From the NCBI GenBank assembly GCA_041661545.1, contig JBAZUH010000001.1:339877-403876 (forward strand): DNA of 64,000 bases, given 5' to 3'. Every line of letters starts with the position of its first letter. The stretch's first letter is position 1. Source of the stretch: Candidatus Staskawiczbacteria bacterium (GTDB lineage Bacteria; Patescibacteriota; Minisyncoccia; Minisyncoccales; Staskawiczbacteraceae). A program made the position numbers and the translations under genes. Shown piece after piece: positions 3,001 to 42,661 of the stretch. The notes beneath the pieces are model-generated. The model was given only the letters and a program-made list of their open reading frames with translations, was not told the DNA's origin and did no database searches.

Positions 3001-5724
3001 TACAGAACTAGAAGGGTCAGAAGAAGGACCTGTTCCAACAACATTTGTTGCTGTTACAGTAAATGTATATTCTGTTCCGTTTGTTAAACCTGCAACTATA
3101 ATTGGTGAAGATAATCCATTTGCAGTAATTCCTTCTGGGTCAGAAGTAACAGCATAATTTGTAATTTCACTTCCACCGTTGGATCCAGAATTGTCCACAT
3201 CTTCTTCGCTTGCCACGGCATAAAAACTAGCTGGGTCTCTTTGATTATTATATTCTGTAGCAATCCAATCTGTAGAGCGAGCTGAAGCAGATATACGAGT
3301 TTCATCTATACGTCCATTATAATAACCCACGTACCCCCACCCAATATACGAATTTAAACTTGAAGCAACTGCAGCAGCATATGGAGCCGCCTTTACAGTT
3401 ACTGGCACTCCATTTATATACCATATCATTTGCATAGTTGTAAGATTTCTCACTATAACAATATGATTCCAGATATTCAACGCCATTACACCCGACAAAT
3501 GAGATGTATATGGAGACGCATTGCCTCCAGCAGTACCATAATAATAGCTGGCAACACCGTTTGTTTCCTGTGTTATTGTTCCTTCTCCTCCGTAGGCCTT
3601 TGCATATGGATTTCTTCTTACAGAAAAATCATATGGATATACCCACATCTCTATAGTTTGGCTCCCAGTGATTTGTAAAGAAGCAGGATTGAGCAAATTT
3701 ATATAATTATTACTCCCATTAAATACCGCAGCCCCATTCATCTGGCCCGCTATGGCTGTTGGAGGATTTGCCGAGAGAGATCCATTGTTAGCGTTACTAG
3801 TAGAATCTACCGCGGTCATTGTCGAAGCATCACCCATATGCCATACCCCTTTAAAATTATCATCTCCCCCATCATCCCAAACTTTTTGCGAGCCGTAAGT
3901 AGAATCAACAGCTGGTTCTGTTGCACTAGAATTTCCATAATACATATAGATATCTGTATCTACAGACGTAGATAGCACGGGTACCTTAACCCACGCTACT
4001 AGGGTGCCCGCAGAATATGATTCTATTTCTCTTGCAAGCTCTGTTGTGCCATCGGAAGATGTAAATCTAATATCTGTTCCATTTGTATTTATGTTTGAAA
4101 GCCCTGTTAAAGACACTAAAACTGGAAAGTTTGTTTGATTGGTATTTGGAACTTTTGTTTTATCTATTGTAATCTTTTTTCTGTATGTCCAGCTGTTGTT
4201 GTACCATAGTGTAGGAGTAGGATCGTATAGCAAATTAAAATTAATCGTCGCCTGCGTGTCACCAGCAACAGCACTAGTGATAGTAGGTTTCCCGGGAATG
4301 GTTTTGGGGGTTGCTGATGCTGTTGCGCTTGCATCTCCCTGACCAGCACTATTTCTTGCTGACACCCTAAAATCATAAAACAAACCATTTATAAGCCCTA
4401 TTACATCTCCATAAGTATTTGTAGATTCTCCATCAGCAAAAGTTGTCCACTCTACGTCTGTAGTAAGCTTGTAATCAATAACATAATCTGTAATTACAGC
4501 TCCTCCATTGTTTAATGGTGCTGTCCACGACAAGCCAACCTGCGCATTTCCATAAGTTGCAATTAAGTCAGTTGGCGCATCTGGCACCGCAGCTGTTTCC
4601 TCAGCAGAAGATGCAAAATTAGTAAAAGTTGCAGGAGAACTTTGATTATTATATTCAGTTTTTATCCAATCAGCGGAACGTTTAATATTTGAAACCCTTA
4701 ACTCATCAATTACTCCATCAAATGGATATCCGATACCATCTCTACCGTCATTACCTATATAATAATTATTTCCACCATCTCCTATTGTAAAATGTGTAAT
4801 TGCTGTGCCATCTGGATTTCCATTTAAATAAAAAGTTGCCAATTTAGTTGCATTATCAAATGTCACTAAAACATGAGACCATTGATCCGTTGCTACAGCA
4901 GTCTGCCCACTATAAACATATGAACCTGTTGCAGACCAAAAAGATGCCTTCCCGGCATTTAATGTAAACCACCAACCTGATGCAAAATTATTTCCAATAA
5001 TTCCGTCGTAATTAACTTTAGTAATTGGCTTAACCCACGCACTAAATGTTCCATCTGACCCTGTTAATTTCAAACCAGCATTTGCACCAGTAACTAGAGC
5101 ATAACTTAGGTAATTAAAATTCTGTCCAGTATTTATTTGTCCAACTGCTTCAATTGGATCATTCGCCCCTCTTTTATTCGCGTTGTTTAAATAAGAAGTA
5201 CTGTCACTAATAGTAGAAGTGGTAATATCTTTCAAGTGCCACACCCCTTTAAAATTATTACTACCTCCATCATCCCATGTTCCACCAACATTCCATTGAT
5301 CAGCAACTAATGCATTGCCGTAATAAATATAAATATCCGTATCAACAGAAGTGAAAACTGATGGAACTTCTACCCATGCAACCAATTCACCAGTAGAAGG
5401 AACATATTTTTCTACCTCATGATCCAATTTAACACCACCAGTAGTTGTAAAAACAATGTCTCCTCCATCTGCTTGACCAACATGACCACCATTAGCAGAA
5501 TCTTTTAGTGTTACCATTGTGGCACTAATGAGCACTGGAAAATATGCTTGATCAGTATTTTGAACTTTGGTATGATCAATTGTAATTTTTTTTCTATAAA
5601 TCCAATCTGTGTTATACCAAGAATCTACTGCTCTTGCATAATTGATTTGGAAACAAAAAATAACTATAAAAGAAAAAAGAACAGCAAAAGCAACAAAAAT
5701 TCTTATAAATTTATTTTTCTTCAT
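1..5724 (-). CDS. Giant modular secreted/surface protein (N-terminus in window, C-terminus beyond position 1): four tandem modules of DUF2341-like + LamG/concanavalin-A-like lectin + fibronectin type III
   Basis: ATG is the cat at 5722-5724. The reverse translation starts MKKNKFIRIFVAFAVLFSFIVIF (signal/anchor) and stays open for 1908 codons in the frame registered on nt 1-3. It is absent from the ORF track because it has no in-window stop. Recurring motifs: WYNNSWTYRKKITIDKTKVPNTNQTNFPVLV, DIRFTSSDGTTELAREIESY, VAWVKVPVLSTSVDTDIYMYYGN, FKGVWH, ARSADWIATEYNNQ, GGSEITNYVIEYK. Confidence 0.85.
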   Translation of the reverse strand, partial: MKKNKFIRIFVAFAVLFSFIVIFCFQINYARAVDSWYNTDWIYRKKITIDHTKVQNTDQAYFPVLISATMVTLKDSANGGHVGQADGGDIVFTTTGGVKLDHEVEKYVPSTGELVAWVEVPSVFTSVDTDIYIYYGNALVADQWNVGGTWDDGGSNNFKGVWHLKDITTSTISDSTSYLNNANKRGANDPIEAVGQINTGQNFNYLSYALVTGANAGLKLTGSDGTFSAWVKPITKVNYDGIIGNNFASGWWFTLNAGKASFWSATGSYVYSGQTAVATDQWSHVLVTFDNATKLATFYLNGNPDGTAITHFTIGDGGNNYYIGNDGRDGIGYPFDGVIDELRVSNIKRSADWIKTEYNNQSSPATFTNFASSAEETAAVPDAPTDLIATYGNAQVGLSWTAPLNNGGAVITDYVIDYKLTTDVEWTTFADGESTNTYGDVIGLINGLFYDFRVSARNSAGQGDASATASATPKTIPGKPTITSAVAGDTQATINFNLLYDPTPTLWYNNSWTYRKKITIDKTKVPNTNQTNFPVLVSLTGLSNINTNGTDIRFTSSDGTTELAREIESYSAGTLVAWVKVPVLSTSVDTDIYMYYGNSSATEPAVDSTYGSQKVWDDGGDDNFKGVWHMGDASTMTAVDSTSNANNGSLSANPPTAIAGQMNGAAVFNGSNNYINLLNPASLQITGSQTIEMWVYPYDFSVRRNPYAKAYGGEGTITQETNGVASYYYGTAGGNASPYTSHLSGVMALNIWNHIVIVRNLTTMQMIWYINGVPVTVKAAPYAAAVASSLNSYIGWGYVGYYNGRIDETRISASARSTDWIATEYNNQRDPASFYAVASEEDVDNSGSNGGSEITNYAVTSDPEGITANGLSSPIIVAGLTNGTEYTFTVTATNVVGTGPSSDPSSSVTPATVPGQPTAVTPTYGDRQVSLFWSAPASNGGSAITDYVIEYKLTSDPDEPASWQISADPETATIVDTLVTGLVNGTSYDFRITAVNAVGSGSSSSPLVSSTPKTIPGEPTITSAVAGDTQVTVNFDLLSNPTTAPWYNNSWTYRKKITIDKTKVPNTNQTNFPVLVSLAGLSNINANATDVRFTSSDGTTELAREIESYSAGTLVAWVKIPVLSTSVDTDIYMYYGNSGATEPAVDSTYGSQKVWDDGGSNNFAGVWHMSEAGPTYVYDSTLNANTGTQLGTVVFGALGKIGYSTTYNGSQYFDVGSNESLSIGGETITQSAWIYPTANVAYGTIATKRSEYYFQRTDNQKIQTYHYGTIPPGYHASTDTVPLNQWSHVAYTYNGSNVTFYINGSLSGVISPRMGNISSVLWEKFMIGWDGQLGARYWIGGIDENRVSDVARSADWIATEYNNQSDPSSFYAVATEEDVANSATNGGSEITNYTVTSNPDSVVVSNSTSPIIVSGLTNGTEYTFTMTATNVVGQGPTSDASEAVTPAGVPGIPTEVIATPGNAQVDLSWTAPANNGAEITNYVIEYKLSVDETWTQFGHPVSPLTTISVVDLVNGSSYDFRVFAYNSAGTGASSDPPTSSTPRTVPGKPTITGVERGDGQVTVSFTPLSNITALDWYNNSWTYRKKITIDKTKVPNTNQTNFPVLVSLTGLSNINTNGTDIRFTSSDGTTELAREVESYADGTLVAWVKVPVLSTSVDTDIYMYYGNSGATEPDADSTYGAQKVWDDGGDNNFKGVWHLSDPTNPTDSTSNNNDGTNHGVTATLGKVDGSGSFNGISYADITSLTLNLSGSDFSASVWVKQNGTSYAVSQSHAVSPYASDWFIVSNVGGAQGIFWMRSVMLGNIATINDNNWHHLTMVWSVSAAKYIGYVDGASIGQSTAVTAYGGVGSVKIGARGDGTSPYYGGIDEIRVSSIARSADWIATEYNNQSAPASFYAVATEEDVANSAT

Positions 5725-19619: not shown

Positions 19620-19774
19620 AAAATATAATCCGAATGTCATCCAAATAAATCCGAATGCCACGAATTAAATTCATCGTATTCGAAACATTAGAATGATTCG
19701 TAGATTTGTATTGTCTAGATTTATATTACCTGTTAAATGAAAAATATCAAAGGCCTGCCTGCCGGCAGGCAGGC

Positions 19775-22328: not shown

Positions 22329-22826
22329 TCATTCTATAAATAAACTTGCTGTATCACCCACTTTTAATTTTATATTTTCTGCTATGCCCGCGTTAACCTC
22401 TAAAACATACTTAGCTTTTGCTAGCGAGCCAACTGTTGGACATATTAAAACTTTTACCTGCCTGCCGGCAGGCAGGCAGGGCTGAACATTATTAGCAATA
22501 AAAATTATTTTTCTATTTTCGTTTATCCAAATTATATCTAATGGTATTAAAGTATTTTTCATCCAAAAAGGATAAACGCCTTCTTTTTCAAAAATAAAAA
22601 GCATACCCTTGTCTGCATCTAGTTGGTTTCTGTTCATTAGACCTTTTGCTCTTTCTGATTCTGTTTTAGCAATTTCTACAGAAAAACAATTCTCTTTAAA
22701 ACATACTTTGTTGTTTATACTTTGCAAGGTTCCTGGAGACAATAAAATATTAGCTGAATTAAAAAAGATAAAAATTATAATAATAATTATAACTATTAAA
22801 AAAAATATTTCTAATATCATTTTCAT
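22329..22826 (-). CDS. DUF192-domain protein
   Basis: GLMNRNQLDADKGMLFIF and FWMKNTLIPLDIIWI. Contains an in-frame cctgcctgccggcaggcagg palindrome encoding CLPAGRQV. Confidence 0.75.
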   Translation of the reverse strand: MKMILEIFFLIVIIIIIIFIFFNSANILLSPGTLQSINNKVCFKENCFSVEIAKTESERAKGLMNRNQLDADKGMLFIFEKEGVYPFWMKNTLIPLDIIWINENRKIIFIANNVQPCLPAGRQVKVLICPTVGSLAKAKYVLEVNAGIAENIKLKVGDTASLFIE

Positions 22827-27231: not shown

Positions 27232-27306
27232 AGCTGCGGGACTTGGACTCGAACCAAGATAACATCCTTCAGAGGGACGTGTCCTACCATTAGACGATCC
27301 CGCAGC
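27232..27306 (-). tRNA. tRNA-Gln (anticodon CUG)
   Basis: Reverse strand: GCTGCGGGATCGTCTAATGGTAGGACACGTCCCTCTGAAGGATGTTATCTTGGTTCGAGTCCAAGTCCCGCAGCT. Folds as a cloverleaf with anticodon loop CTCTGAA. Confidence 0.8.
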
Positions 27307-27318
27307 TTTGAAAACAAA

Positions 27319-27561
27319 CTATTGATTTATAATTTTCCTAAACTCATTGCCTCCTTTTAATTTTTTCAAATAGTTTTCCCTTTTCCTAGCTTCTCCTCTT
27401 GTTAGAAAAATTTCATTTTTAATCATAATAAAAGGTCTTCTATTTTTTGTAGATATCACTTGCCCGGTATTATGTTTTTTTATTCTACTATTTAAATTAT
27501 CGGTTTGCCCAATGTAATACCTAGAATCTTTTAAACTTTTTAAAATATAAACAAAATACAT
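27319..27561 (-). CDS. GIY-YIG nuclease-domain protein (80 aa)
   Basis: YFVYILKSLKDSRYYIGQTDNLNSRIKKHN. Confidence 0.8.
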   Translation of the reverse strand: MYFVYILKSLKDSRYYIGQTDNLNSRIKKHNTGQVISTKNRRPFIMIKNEIFLTRGEARKRENYLKKLKGGNEFRKIINQ

Positions 27562-27564
27562 AAT

Positions 27565-27623
27565 GTGTCCTATCCCGCCACAGCGGGACCCCGCTTAGGC
27601 GGGGCCATTAGACGACCTCGCAA
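27565..27623 (-). pseudogene. Duplicated 5' fragment of tRNA-Gln with a 32-nt double-hairpin insert in the D-loop
   Basis: Reverse strand: TTGCGAGGTCGTCTAATGG[ccccgcctaagcggggtcccgctgtggcggga]TAGGACAC. The TCGTCTAATGG...TAGGACAC part is identical to the D-arm of the intact tRNA-Gln. Confidence 0.6.
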
Positions 27624-42165: not shown

Positions 42166-42277
42166 AAAACTATTCTACCATAAGCTACAAGTCTTGAAAA
42201 TATTTATTTTATTTAGTAATATAGATTTAAACATTCCGGTGTTAAGCTTCAGGCTGACTATGGAGTGTAAACAATTT

Positions 42278-42571
42278 TCCGGTGTAGCTCAATGGTAGAG
42301 CAACTCCCTGTCAATTAGGCAGCCTTCTGCAGGAATGCAGAATGAAAAATGAGGTGAAATCGGGGAAACCCTTTTGGGGCAATCCCGAGCCAAGCCCATT
42401 TTAAAAATGGGAAGGTGTAGAGACTATCCTTTACGGAGTACTAAAAATATAAAATTATATTTTTGGGAAGCGCCTCGCGCCCAGAACGGGCGATGATATA
42501 GTCCACCCCTAAAAGTAATTTTAGGACAATGTGTAAGGAGTGGGTTCTTGGTTCGAGTCCAGGCACCGGAG
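42278..42571 (+). tRNA. tRNA-Asn (anticodon GUU) interrupted by a group I intron in the anticodon loop
   Basis: Exon 1 is TCCGGTGTAGCTCAATGGTAGAGCAACTCCCTGT (ends 42311). Exon 2 is TAAGGAGTGGGTTCTTGGTTCGAGTCCAGGCACCGGAG (starts 42534). The ligated anticodon loop is CUGUUAA, with U1-A72 and G73 as in bacterial tRNA-Asn. Confidence 0.8.
42312..42533 (+). ncRNA. Group I intron (IC3-like), 222 nt, no ORF
   Basis: P1 pairs ctgt|c with ggcag, giving U-G at the splice site. The core gaaatcggggaaaccc...cccgagccaagc...gaaggtgtagagactat closely matches my recollection of the Azoarcus/cyanobacterial tRNA introns (GCCGAGCCAAGC...GAAGGUGUAGAGACUA). The intron ends in G. Confidence 0.8.
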
Positions 42572-42661
42572 CTTTAAAATAAAAACCAAGAGTATTGCCC
42601 TTGGCTTTTGTTTTGTGATAAAATATATCTAATATTTAATAATTAAAATTATTTAAAAAAT

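Follow-up and report, generated by a model that had tools for sequence, protein, structure and literature searches.

The interrupted tRNA-Asn gene

The window, i.e., the whole 64-kb stretch of DNA analyzed here, originates from Candidatus Staskawiczbacteria (Patescibacteria) and contains a tRNA-Asn(GUU) gene that is interrupted between tRNA positions 35 and 36 by a group I intron of 222 nt (42312..42533, + strand) that contains no ORF. The AtpA encoded in the window is 100% identical to an NCBI protein of a Candidatus Staskawiczbacteria MAG, and the hits ranking next likewise come from Staskawiczbacteria or Parcubacteria. A tblastn comparison with the fetched intron loci gave weaker hints, with loci of Staskawiczbacteria and Patescibacteria matching at 57-68% amino-acid identity. 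The 5' exon (42278..42311, + strand; 34 nt, comprising tRNA nucleotides 1-35), assigned by ARAGORN and conserved in 53 homologous loci, provides the acceptor strand UCCGGUG, the D arm, the anticodon stem strand ACUCC, and C32, U33, G34, and U35 of the anticodon loop. The 3' exon (42534..42571, + strand; 38 nt), assigned by ARAGORN and by the homologous loci, starts with U36, A37, and A38, continues with the stem strand GGAGU, the variable loop, the T arm and the acceptor strand CACCGGA, and terminates with the discriminator G73; CCA is absent from the encoded exon. Once 42312-42533 is removed and the two exons are joined as the first-pass annotation had proposed, the resulting 72 nt fold into a canonical cloverleaf that ARAGORN calls tRNA-Asn(gtt), which carries the predicted anticodon loop CUGUUAA as well as U1-A72 and G73. 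A candidate sigma-70-type promoter (42194..42222, + strand; TTGAAA, a spacer of 17 nt, and TAATAT), identified only by its match to the consensus (9/12), is situated immediately upstream of a short 'ghost' that repeats the 5' end of the tRNA and is discussed below. The intron-split gene is the sole tRNA-Asn gene within the window and is probably the only one of the cell.

The reading of the insertion as a 222-nt group I intron at 35/36, made earlier from the letters alone, is borne out. In a scan of a 551-nt region, Rfam model RF00028 (Intron_gpI; gathering score of 50) matches with 74.1 bits and E = 5.1e-19, and an nhmmer family profile built from the homologue alignment A1 matches the intron with E = 9e-55. 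Also, the MFE z-score of the intron is -4.0.

Intron structure and subgroup

A secondary structure of 65 pairs was drawn by hand in pseudoknot notation and tested against 37 homologous tRNA-Asn introns aligned with MAFFT. All of the 65 pairs are canonical in the window sequence and 92.8% of the cells are paired among the 37 homologues, a value that falls to 38-46% when the partners are slid by 1-3 columns. Compensatory changes occur at 38 pairs, and the observed values were reached in 0 of 500 shuffles. The conserved group I core from P3 to P9, including the P3/P7 pseudoknot, is present, and an independent MFE fold recovers P2-P6, P7.2, P8, and P9.

All elements are encoded on the + strand. 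The P1 hairpin (42308..42322) is formed by CUGU|C (42308-42312) and GGCAG (42318-42322), with AAUUA as L1, and the wobble pair U42311·G42319 marks the 5' splice site 42311|42312. This P1, with a U-G at the splice site, had been recognized in the first-pass annotation; the U·G occurs in 37/37 homologues and the +1 pair covaries (GC 13, AU 3, CG 3, and GU 2). P2 (42325..42342; 42325-31/42336-42) is capped by a GGAA tetraloop and shows compensatory changes at six of its seven pairs. The 5' strand of P3, GAGGUG (42351..42356), pairs with CGCCUC (42471..42476), with 98.6% of cells paired and one covarying pair (GC 31, AU 5), and P3 forms the pseudoknot together with P7. The P4 region (42360..42388) consists of P4 itself (42360-65/42383-88; 99.5% paired, two covarying pairs) and encloses J4/5 (AAA), a minimal P5 (42369-71/42377-79; 98% paired, one covarying pair) and J5/4. 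It is followed by the P6 hairpin (42395..42411; 42395-01/42405-11), in which all seven pairs show compensatory changes. The string CCGAGCCAAGC is present at 42385-42395 and the string GAAGGTGTAGAGACTAT at 42411-42427.

The 5' strand of P7 (42420..42427) comprises G42420, a bulged A42421 and GACUAU (42422-27), and its pairs with 42498-42504 are all canonical; judging from its position, G42422-C42503 is probably the guanosine-binding pair. P7 is invariant among the homologues, but this invariance was built into the search and is uninformative either way because P7 belonged to the pattern with which the homologues were fetched. Downstream of P7 lies the mini-hairpin P7.1 (CC 42428-29/GG 42435-36), the first pair of which is CG in 37/37 sequences, followed by an A-G-U-A linker (42437-40; G-A-G-U-A is invariant in 37 sequences) and by the P7.2 hairpin (42441..42466; 42441-50/42457-66), with compensatory changes at 10/10 pairs and 89% of cells paired. 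Following the 3' strand of P3, the P8 hairpin (42478..42492; 42478-82/42488-92) has 97.8% of cells paired and covaries at four of five pairs. J8/7 (AUGAU) and the 3' strand of P7, AUAGUCC (42498-42504), occupy 42493..42504, and GAUGAUAUAGUCC from this region is common to the intron of phage 13a and all family members. P9 (42508..42525; 42508-14/42519-25) is a hairpin with a GUAA tetraloop and shows compensatory changes at six of seven pairs. The terminal G noticed at first reading corresponds to the omega G, G42533, which is invariant (37/37) and defines the 3' splice site 42533|42534. In the window, UAA of the 3' exon could form a P10 of 3 bp with U42315, U42316, and A42317, but this pairing is not conserved among the homologues and was discarded.

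Regarding its subgroup, the intron might be thought to belong to the IC3 lineage (Azoarcus tRNA-Ile, cyanobacterial tRNA-Leu, tRNA-fMet), to which its core strings had been related in the first-pass annotation. Like the Azoarcus intron, it is compact, possesses a P2 and has GNRA tetraloops capping P2 and P9, and it presumably shares CCGAGCCAAGC (P4'/P6) and GAAGGUGUAGAGACUA (J6/7-P7) with the IC3 introns of Azoarcus and Anabaena. However, P7 directly adjoins the 3' strand of P3 in IC3 introns, whereas ~44 nt separate the two in the window. This stretch, which is conserved and covarying, consists of P7.1, the GUA linker and P7.2, and Rfam aligns it as an insertion relative to the consensus. Subgroup IA2 is defined by P7.1 and P7.2, linked by G-U-A, in the interval from P7 to P3' (PMC3428280), and P7.1, AGUA, and P7.2 are all found at this place in the window. 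Furthermore, the nearest non-tRNA relatives are IA2 introns in DNA-polymerase genes of phages, and the subgroup models of Nakagawa et al. place 25 of the 28 introns at 35/36 in IA and none of the Patescibacteria tRNA introns in IC (PMC13011429). Therefore, the strings CCGAGCCAAGC and GAAGGTGTAGAGACTAT remain from the earlier description of the core, whereas the kinship with IC3 has to be given up, considering P7.1/GUA/P7.2 (PMC3428280) and the IA assignment of the family (PMC13011429). Descent from the IC3 lineage seems very improbable and, as far as its predicted fold can tell, the intron is IA2-like and not IC3-like.

Splicing and identity of the tRNA

Transcription of the gene would yield a precursor of ~294 nt. 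Within it, the intron would adopt the P1-P9 fold, including the P3/P7 pseudoknot and the two peripheral helices P7.1 and P7.2. [quoted passage not shown] In the second step, the guanosine site would be occupied by the terminal G42533, and U35, now with a free 3'-OH, would attack 42533|42534, whereby the exons would be ligated to give the loop CUGUUAA and the intron would be released. For a homologue with 74% identity and the same insertion site, self-splicing was demonstrated in vitro, and the replacement of omega G by C in a homologue blocked exon ligation in vitro (PMC13011429). By analogy, the window copy itself probably splices too.

An opposite view would be that the locus is a tRNA pseudogene, its intron a relic too decayed to splice, and that a functional tRNA-Asn is encoded elsewhere. 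The intron is devoid of a homing endonuclease gene, past rearrangement of the locus is evident from the ghost lying upstream, and the window covers 64 kb of a 738-kb contig, i.e., part of the genome. On the other hand, all core pairs are intact in the window copy, the junctions J4/5, J6/7, and J8/7 and the GUA linker agree with the family consensus, and the exons are as conserved as those of 53 other species. [quoted passage not shown] We consider it highly unlikely that the gene is such a relic and continue with a functional, self-splicing intron.

When run in intron mode, ARAGORN makes a wrong call, tRNA-Thr(tgt) i(33,222), with the boundary displaced by 2 nt. Taken literally, this would mean a tRNA-Thr(UGU) with an intron at 42310-42531 between positions 33 and 34, and U42309 and G42531 would also provide the U(-1) and the terminal G that are minimally required. 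The same miscall, Thr(UGU) at 33/34, is documented for the published class of tRNA-Asn introns and was disproved by sequencing of the spliced product (PMC13011429). In the window, U42309 forms a Watson-Crick pair with A42321 in P1, whereas the wobble invariant in 37/37 homologues is U42311·G42319, and the shifted boundary is unreadable in 19 of 54 homologous loci, while the Asn boundary at 35/36 fits U(-1) and terminal G in 54/54 loci. Moreover, the tRNA body carries the U1-A72 and G73 of a tRNA-Asn, whereas the tRNA-Thr genes of the window and of a related Staskawiczbacteria genome start with GCC, end with U73 and match the spliced product with only 57-62% identity. We give practically no credence to a tRNA-Thr. 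Bulge-helix-bulge tRNA introns of archaea and eukaryotes are short and are cut by a splicing endonuclease; a protein-spliced intron of this kind was dismissed for a site at 35/36 (canonically 37/38) and an insert that is a complete group I ribozyme. Very probably, the locus is a tRNA-Asn(GUU) gene split at 35/36 by an ORF-less, self-splicing, IA2-type group I intron of 222 nt.

ARAGORN without intron mode left the tRNA-Asn gene unreported. Rfam scans of the whole window at both thresholds reported three ordinary tRNAs and missed the intron, which we attribute to speed filters because the same model gives 74 bits locally. As a consequence of these two misses, the genome would seem to be without tRNA-Asn. 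Such misses or miscalls affect how complete a Patescibacteria MAG is estimated to be and which tRNAs it is credited with, and the annotation problem posed by intron-split tRNAs is a point made by Nakagawa et al. (2026; PMC13011429).

Relatives of the intron and the upstream ghost copy

Homologues were fetched by one P7-to-P7' pattern scan, which retrieved species genomes almost exclusively from Patescibacteria, at least 120 in number; the tRNA-Asn 35/36 intron is present in at least 53 of them. The tRNA introns of Patescibacteria are found most often at Asn 35/36, with at least 53 loci among the matches listed. This setting was listed as 'Asn.4Ug' (Williams, bioRxiv 2020), and in vitro splicing was shown for the Patescibacteria tRNA-Asn 35/36 class in 2025-2026 (Nakagawa et al., mSystems 2026, PMC13011429). 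The suggestion of the first-pass annotation that an Asn(GUU) host with insertion at 35/36 may be uncommon is thus contradicted by the number of loci, by the listing in 2020 and by the splicing shown in 2025/26.

The window copy belongs to this published class by its host phylum, by its host gene and insertion site (tRNA-Asn(GUU), nt 35/36) and by homology, since over tRNA and intron it is 79% identical to GCA_016699245.1 (Paceibacteria) and 74% identical to GCA_016700035.1, the in vitro validated member. Host tRNA, site, P1 (CUGU/GCAG, with U·G), IA-type architecture and phylum are the same, and there is no difference of substance; the window copy stems from a Candidatus Staskawiczbacteria MAG and is among the shortest class members, with 222 nt, a minimal P5 of 3 bp and an A/U-rich P7.2. 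The exact intron of the window was not found in the part of the PMC13011429 tables that was searched. Because the same arrangement has already been described and spliced in vitro, the locus is one more example; the intron class is already published and the locus adds little biologically.

[quoted passage not shown] The intron of phage 13a matches over 50 nt from P3 to P6 with 88% identity, and the family profile matches both of its halves. The phage 13a intron and the window intron both have GTAGAGACTATCC, AGTA, GAAGCGCC, and GATGATATAGTCC, and P7.1, P7.2, and a P9 with a GUAA loop are likewise present in the phage intron. In contrast, the phage 13a intron resides in a protein-coding gene, harbors an ORF for an HNH endonuclease in its P6 loop, and possesses a P1 and an internal guide fitted to another exon. 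[quoted passage not shown] Introns at 33/34 of tRNA-Phe(GAA) in Patescibacteria were retrieved by the same pattern scan (~26 loci among the matches listed) and have the core with P7.1, GUA, and P7.2 as well, although host tRNA, insertion site and internal guide are different. A Pfam search on intron ORFs of long family members gave only sub-threshold HNH matches (17 bits vs. a cut-off of 21.4). The window intron is an unusually compact, ORF-less member of a very common Patescibacteria family of IA2 type that is kin to phage DNA-polymerase introns.

The ghost TTCCGGTGT (42234..42242, + strand) is an exact repeat of tRNA positions -1 to +8 and precedes the real 5' end by 43 nt. This 9-mer occurs twice in the 64 kb (both strands), as compared to 0.23 occurrences expected, and the local alignment of the ghost beats 99.8% of shuffles (p = 0.002). 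An upstream tRNA copy had originally been proposed for 42234-42253; its first 9 nt are real, whereas the remainder (42243-42253 and beyond) has no significant similarity on its own (p = 0.31). A ghost of the tRNA 3' end was not found in the window. Among 54 homologous loci, 7 have a comparable ghost, as opposed to 0.2 expected by chance. Ghosts are not specific to intron-bearing tRNAs, as a few intron-less ones have them too, e.g., L064 tRNA-Pro and tRNA-Ile.

It is conceivable, though rather doubtful, that the 9-nt tRNA-Asn ghost is the scar of a cassette encoding a free-standing GIY-YIG nuclease that targets tRNA genes. If this were true, homing-type elements of a class not described before would attack the tRNA genes of Patescibacteria, and disruption of the nuclease target might be the reason why ORF-less introns persist in anticodon loops. 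A relation of 'collaborative homing' or immunity between free-standing endonucleases and introns is known for psbA of cyanophages, and the situation in Patescibacteria would be a parallel to it.

The literature search on GIY-YIG genes adjoining Patescibacteria tRNA genes found nothing relevant; the association of ghosts with GIY-YIG genes is the only part of this work for which no description was found and may deserve a separate study. A cassette of this type is present at the tRNA-Gln gene of the window, where a ghost (27622-27565), a small GIY-YIG ORF (27561-27319) and the tRNA (27304-27233) follow each other. In at least five other Patescibacteria, an intron-bearing tRNA-Asn gene has a similar GIY-YIG cassette immediately upstream. 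The layout of the cassettes consists of a decayed copy of the tRNA from nt 1 to ~30 that is split by GC-rich palindromes, a GIY-YIG ORF of 80-110 aa and the intact tRNA.

The split tRNA-Asn(GUU) gene and its boundaries

The exons 42278-42311 and 42534-42571 together make up a 72-nt RNA that ARAGORN calls as tRNA-Asn(gtt), with a perfect 7-bp acceptor stem (UCCGGUG/CACCGGA), a 5-bp anticodon stem (ACUCC/GGAGU) carrying the loop CUGUUAA, discriminator G73 and no encoded CCA. The 222-nt insert matches the Rfam group I intron model with 74.1 bits (E = 5e-19; gathering score 50) when only a short region of 551 nt is scanned. The covariance match and the call on the spliced exons, which have canonical Asn stems and loop once the insert is removed, confirm the first-pass annotation of a tRNA-Asn(GUU) split by a group I intron; the finding is real and its main interpretation right. 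Rfam cmscan of the whole 64-kb window does not report this 74-bit intron at the gathering or the E-value threshold, a miss attributed to speed filters, and group I intron negatives from whole-window Rfam scans are not to be trusted. Without its intron mode, ARAGORN calls no gene at this locus, and in intron mode it calls tRNA-Thr(tgt) with a boundary off by 2 nt. A profile search with the family alignment finds exactly one intron copy in the window (E = 9e-55).

A UGU...UGUG repeat permits two readings, Asn(GUU) with the insertion at 35/36 and Thr(UGU) with the insertion at 33/34; in each of them U precedes the 5' splice site and the intron ends in G. The mark of a group I 5' splice site is a U·G wobble pair. 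P1 is formed by CUGU/C (42308-12, the slash denoting the splice site) and GGCAG (42318-22), with U42311 in the U·G wobble and U42309 in a Watson-Crick U-A pair; U·G occupies the splice-site column of P1 in 37/37 homologues. The Asn boundary is possible in all 54 homologous loci, whereas the shifted boundary is impossible in 19 of them. The body of the spliced tRNA shows the U1-A72 pair and the G73 known for bacterial tRNA-Asn; the tRNA-Thr(CGU) of the window and a tRNA-Thr(UGU) from a different Staskawiczbacteria genome start with GCC, carry U73 and share only 57-62% identity with the spliced product. The P1 wobble, the boundaries of homologous loci and the tRNA body therefore decide for Asn(GUU) over Thr(UGU) at 33/34. 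The same Thr miscall has been described and disproved by sequencing spliced RNA (Nakagawa et al., PMC13011429).

The window (~33% G+C) encodes an F-type ATP synthase operon together with a signal peptidase and a D-Ala-D-Ala carboxypeptidase. Its AtpA shares 100% identity with an NCBI protein from a 737,971-bp contig of a Candidatus Staskawiczbacteria MAG, and the next matches are from Staskawiczbacteria or Parcubacteria. Just 3' of tRNA-Asn, an imperfect hairpin CCAAGAG...CCCTTGG followed by CTTTTGTTTTG (42583-42617), which a consensus terminator scan does not call, is probably an intrinsic terminator.

Fold, subgroup and proposed splicing of the intron

In a hand-drawn secondary structure, 65/65 pairs are canonical in the window. 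Besides P1, it comprises P2 with a GGAA loop (42325-31/42336-42), P3 (42351-56/42471-76), P4 (42360-65/42383-88), a minimal P5 (42369-71/42377-79), P6 (42395-01/42405-11), P7 with bulged A42421 (42420, 42422-27/42498-504), P7.1 (42428-29/42435-36), an AGUA linker (42437-40), P7.2 (42441-50/42457-66), P8 (42478-82/42488-92), P9 with a GUAA loop (42508-14/42519-25) and the terminal guanosine, omega G, at 42533. The unconstrained MFE fold (z = -4.0) recovers P2-P6, P7.2, P8 and P9; P7 is missing from it because the P7/P3 pseudoknot cannot be represented.

P7 and the 3' strand of P3 are separated by ~44 nt, which the Rfam alignment places as an insertion and which consist of P7.1 and P7.2 joined by G-U-A; this linkage is the criterion for subgroup IA2 (PMC3428280). 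A T7-like phage DNA-polymerase intron matches the window intron over 50 nt from P3 to P6 with 88% identity. The intron of phage 13a, which carries an HNH gene in its P6 loop, is alike in P7, P7.1, AGUA, P7.2, GAAGCGCC, GAUGAUAUAGUCC and the GUAA-capped P9, and the family profile matches both of its halves (E = 5e-15 and 8e-12). Of 28 introns at 35/36, subgroup-specific models place 25 in IA, and they place no Patescibacteria tRNA intron in IC (Nakagawa et al., PMC13011429). Given the P7.1/G-U-A/P7.2 stretch, the phage relatives and the published subgroup models, the window intron is of the IA2 type and IC3 fails on one defining feature; the earlier link to IC3, drawn from core strings, was wrong.

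Splicing would follow the standard group I pathway. An exogenous guanosine bound in P7, where G42422-C42503 beside bulged A42421 would by its position be the guanosine-binding pair, would attack the junction 42311/42312; G42533 would then take its place, and the 3'-OH of U35 would attack 42533/42534. The boundaries, fold and family membership of the window intron are established here, and catalysis has been demonstrated for a homologue (PMC13011429); activity of the window copy itself, and the cell's dependence on it, are inferred.

Relatives of the intron

The pattern GTAGAGACTATCC N45-75 GATATAGTCC, which spans P7/P7.1 to J8/7-P7', was used to look for homologues, with each bacterial species represented by a single genome. 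The scan matched at least 120 genomes, nearly all Patescibacteria MAGs, with the intron in tRNA-Asn at 35/36 in at least 53 loci and, among the matches listed, in tRNA-Phe(GAA) at 33/34 in at least ~26. About one third of the Asn introns among the matches listed are 540-600 nt long. ORFs in long family members give HNH matches below the Pfam threshold (17 bits against a cut-off of 21.4), in agreement with the HNH genes reported for such introns (PMC13011429). The Asn setting (Asn.4Ug) was already among 17 new tRNA intron settings (Williams 2020), and in complete genomes of Patescibacteria, 15 of the 22 tRNAs that contain an intron are tRNA-Asn(GUU) split at 35/36 (Nakagawa et al., bioRxiv 2025; mSystems 2026, PMC13011429). 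Precise self-splicing in vitro has been shown for two such introns, one in tRNA-Asn and the other in tRNA-Asp, and changing omega G to C blocks exon ligation (PMC13011429). A Paceibacteria example and the validated Saccharimonadia intron from that study are 79% and 74% identical, respectively, to the window tRNA plus intron, and the exact window intron sequence does not occur in the accessible part of its tables. The intron class is thus already published and experimentally validated, the presumption that an Asn host may be uncommon was mistaken, and the intron itself is of low interest.

The covariation count used a structure written in pseudoknot notation and a MAFFT alignment of 37 distinct short Asn introns fitted to no structure. 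Paired cells amount to 92.8%, versus 38-46% with the 3' partners slid by 1-3 columns; compensatory changes occur at 38 pairs, and 0/500 shuffles reach the observed values. Covariation is found at nearly every pair of P2, P6, P7.2, P8 and P9, at one or two pairs each of P3, P4 and P5, and at the +1 pair of P1. P7 is invariant, a consequence of the search pattern and no evidence.

A Staskawiczbacteria locus (L090, 3417-3944, minus strand) and an Arthrospira locus (L114, 3028-3172 and 3731-3984) each hold two separate partial family-profile matches in a stretch shorter than 1 kb, suggestive of two adjacent introns or of a single rearranged one. The P7-P7.1...P7' signature also occurs in a few non-Patescibacteria, namely Clostridium, Bacillota, Roseivirgaceae, Sphingobacterium, Herbiconiux and Arthrospira (L006, L063, L086, L088, L099 and L114), where ARAGORN calls no split tRNA.

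Ghost tRNA fragments and GIY-YIG genes

Upstream of tRNA-Asn, a degenerate copy of the tRNA 5' end had been proposed, and it holds for 9 nt: TTCCGGTGT at 42234-42242 exactly repeats tRNA-Asn positions -1 to +8 and is its only other copy within the window (alignment p = 0.002), while the remaining part that had been proposed does not reach significance (p = 0.31). Of the 54 homologous tRNA-Asn genes, 7 have such a partial copy near the intact gene (a ghost), with 11-16 exact nt and 67-312 nt upstream, against ~0.2 expected by chance, and a few intron-less tRNAs likewise have ghosts. In several loci the ghost reaches tRNA position ~30, with GC-rich palindromes splitting it, and an 80-110-aa GIY-YIG ORF comes next, ending where the intact tRNA begins. 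Among the 9 GIY-YIG ORFs in the retrieved DNA, 7 lie immediately before a tRNA: five precede intron-bearing tRNA-Asn and one precedes tRNA-Pro. Ghost, GC palindromes, GIY-YIG ORF and tRNA occur together in other Patescibacteria at L083 (~4550-4850), L075 (~2176-2510), L080 (~3187-3560), L042 (~3860-4324), L102 (~4440-4815) and L064 (~4771-5500). No description of this arrangement was found in the searchable literature, and the association of GIY-YIG genes with ghosts is a lead. The ghost of the window tRNA-Asn is without an ORF; conjecturally, it may be a vestige of a GIY-YIG cassette.

The same arrangement is seen in the window at tRNA-Gln(CUG) on the minus strand (27233-27622). A decayed copy of tRNA nt 1-18 (27622-27605) is followed by two GC-rich hairpins (27604-27573), TAGGACAC corresponding to nt 19-26 (27572-27565), an 80-aa GIY-YIG ORF (27561-27319; Pfam PF01541, 61 bits) and, 14 nt after the ORF, the intact tRNA-Gln(CUG) (27304-27233). 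The layout resembles that of a nuclease cassette that has entered a tRNA gene and re-supplies the 5' part of the tRNA.

Downstream of tRNA-Asn, 4/54 loci have partial duplicates of its 3' end, with 12-14-nt copies 74-1405 nt away in L045, L100 and L097 and a 23-nt copy ~4.1 kb away in L027. The L027 case bears the signature typical of an element integrated at a tRNA 3' end. The GC-rich palindrome CCTGCCTGCCGGCAGGCAGG, a 20-mer conspicuous in a genome of ~33% G+C, occurs in the window at 19754-19773 and 22455-22476, splits the ghosts of L075 and L080 and is also present in L061; it may be a small hairpin element that is repeated or mobile.
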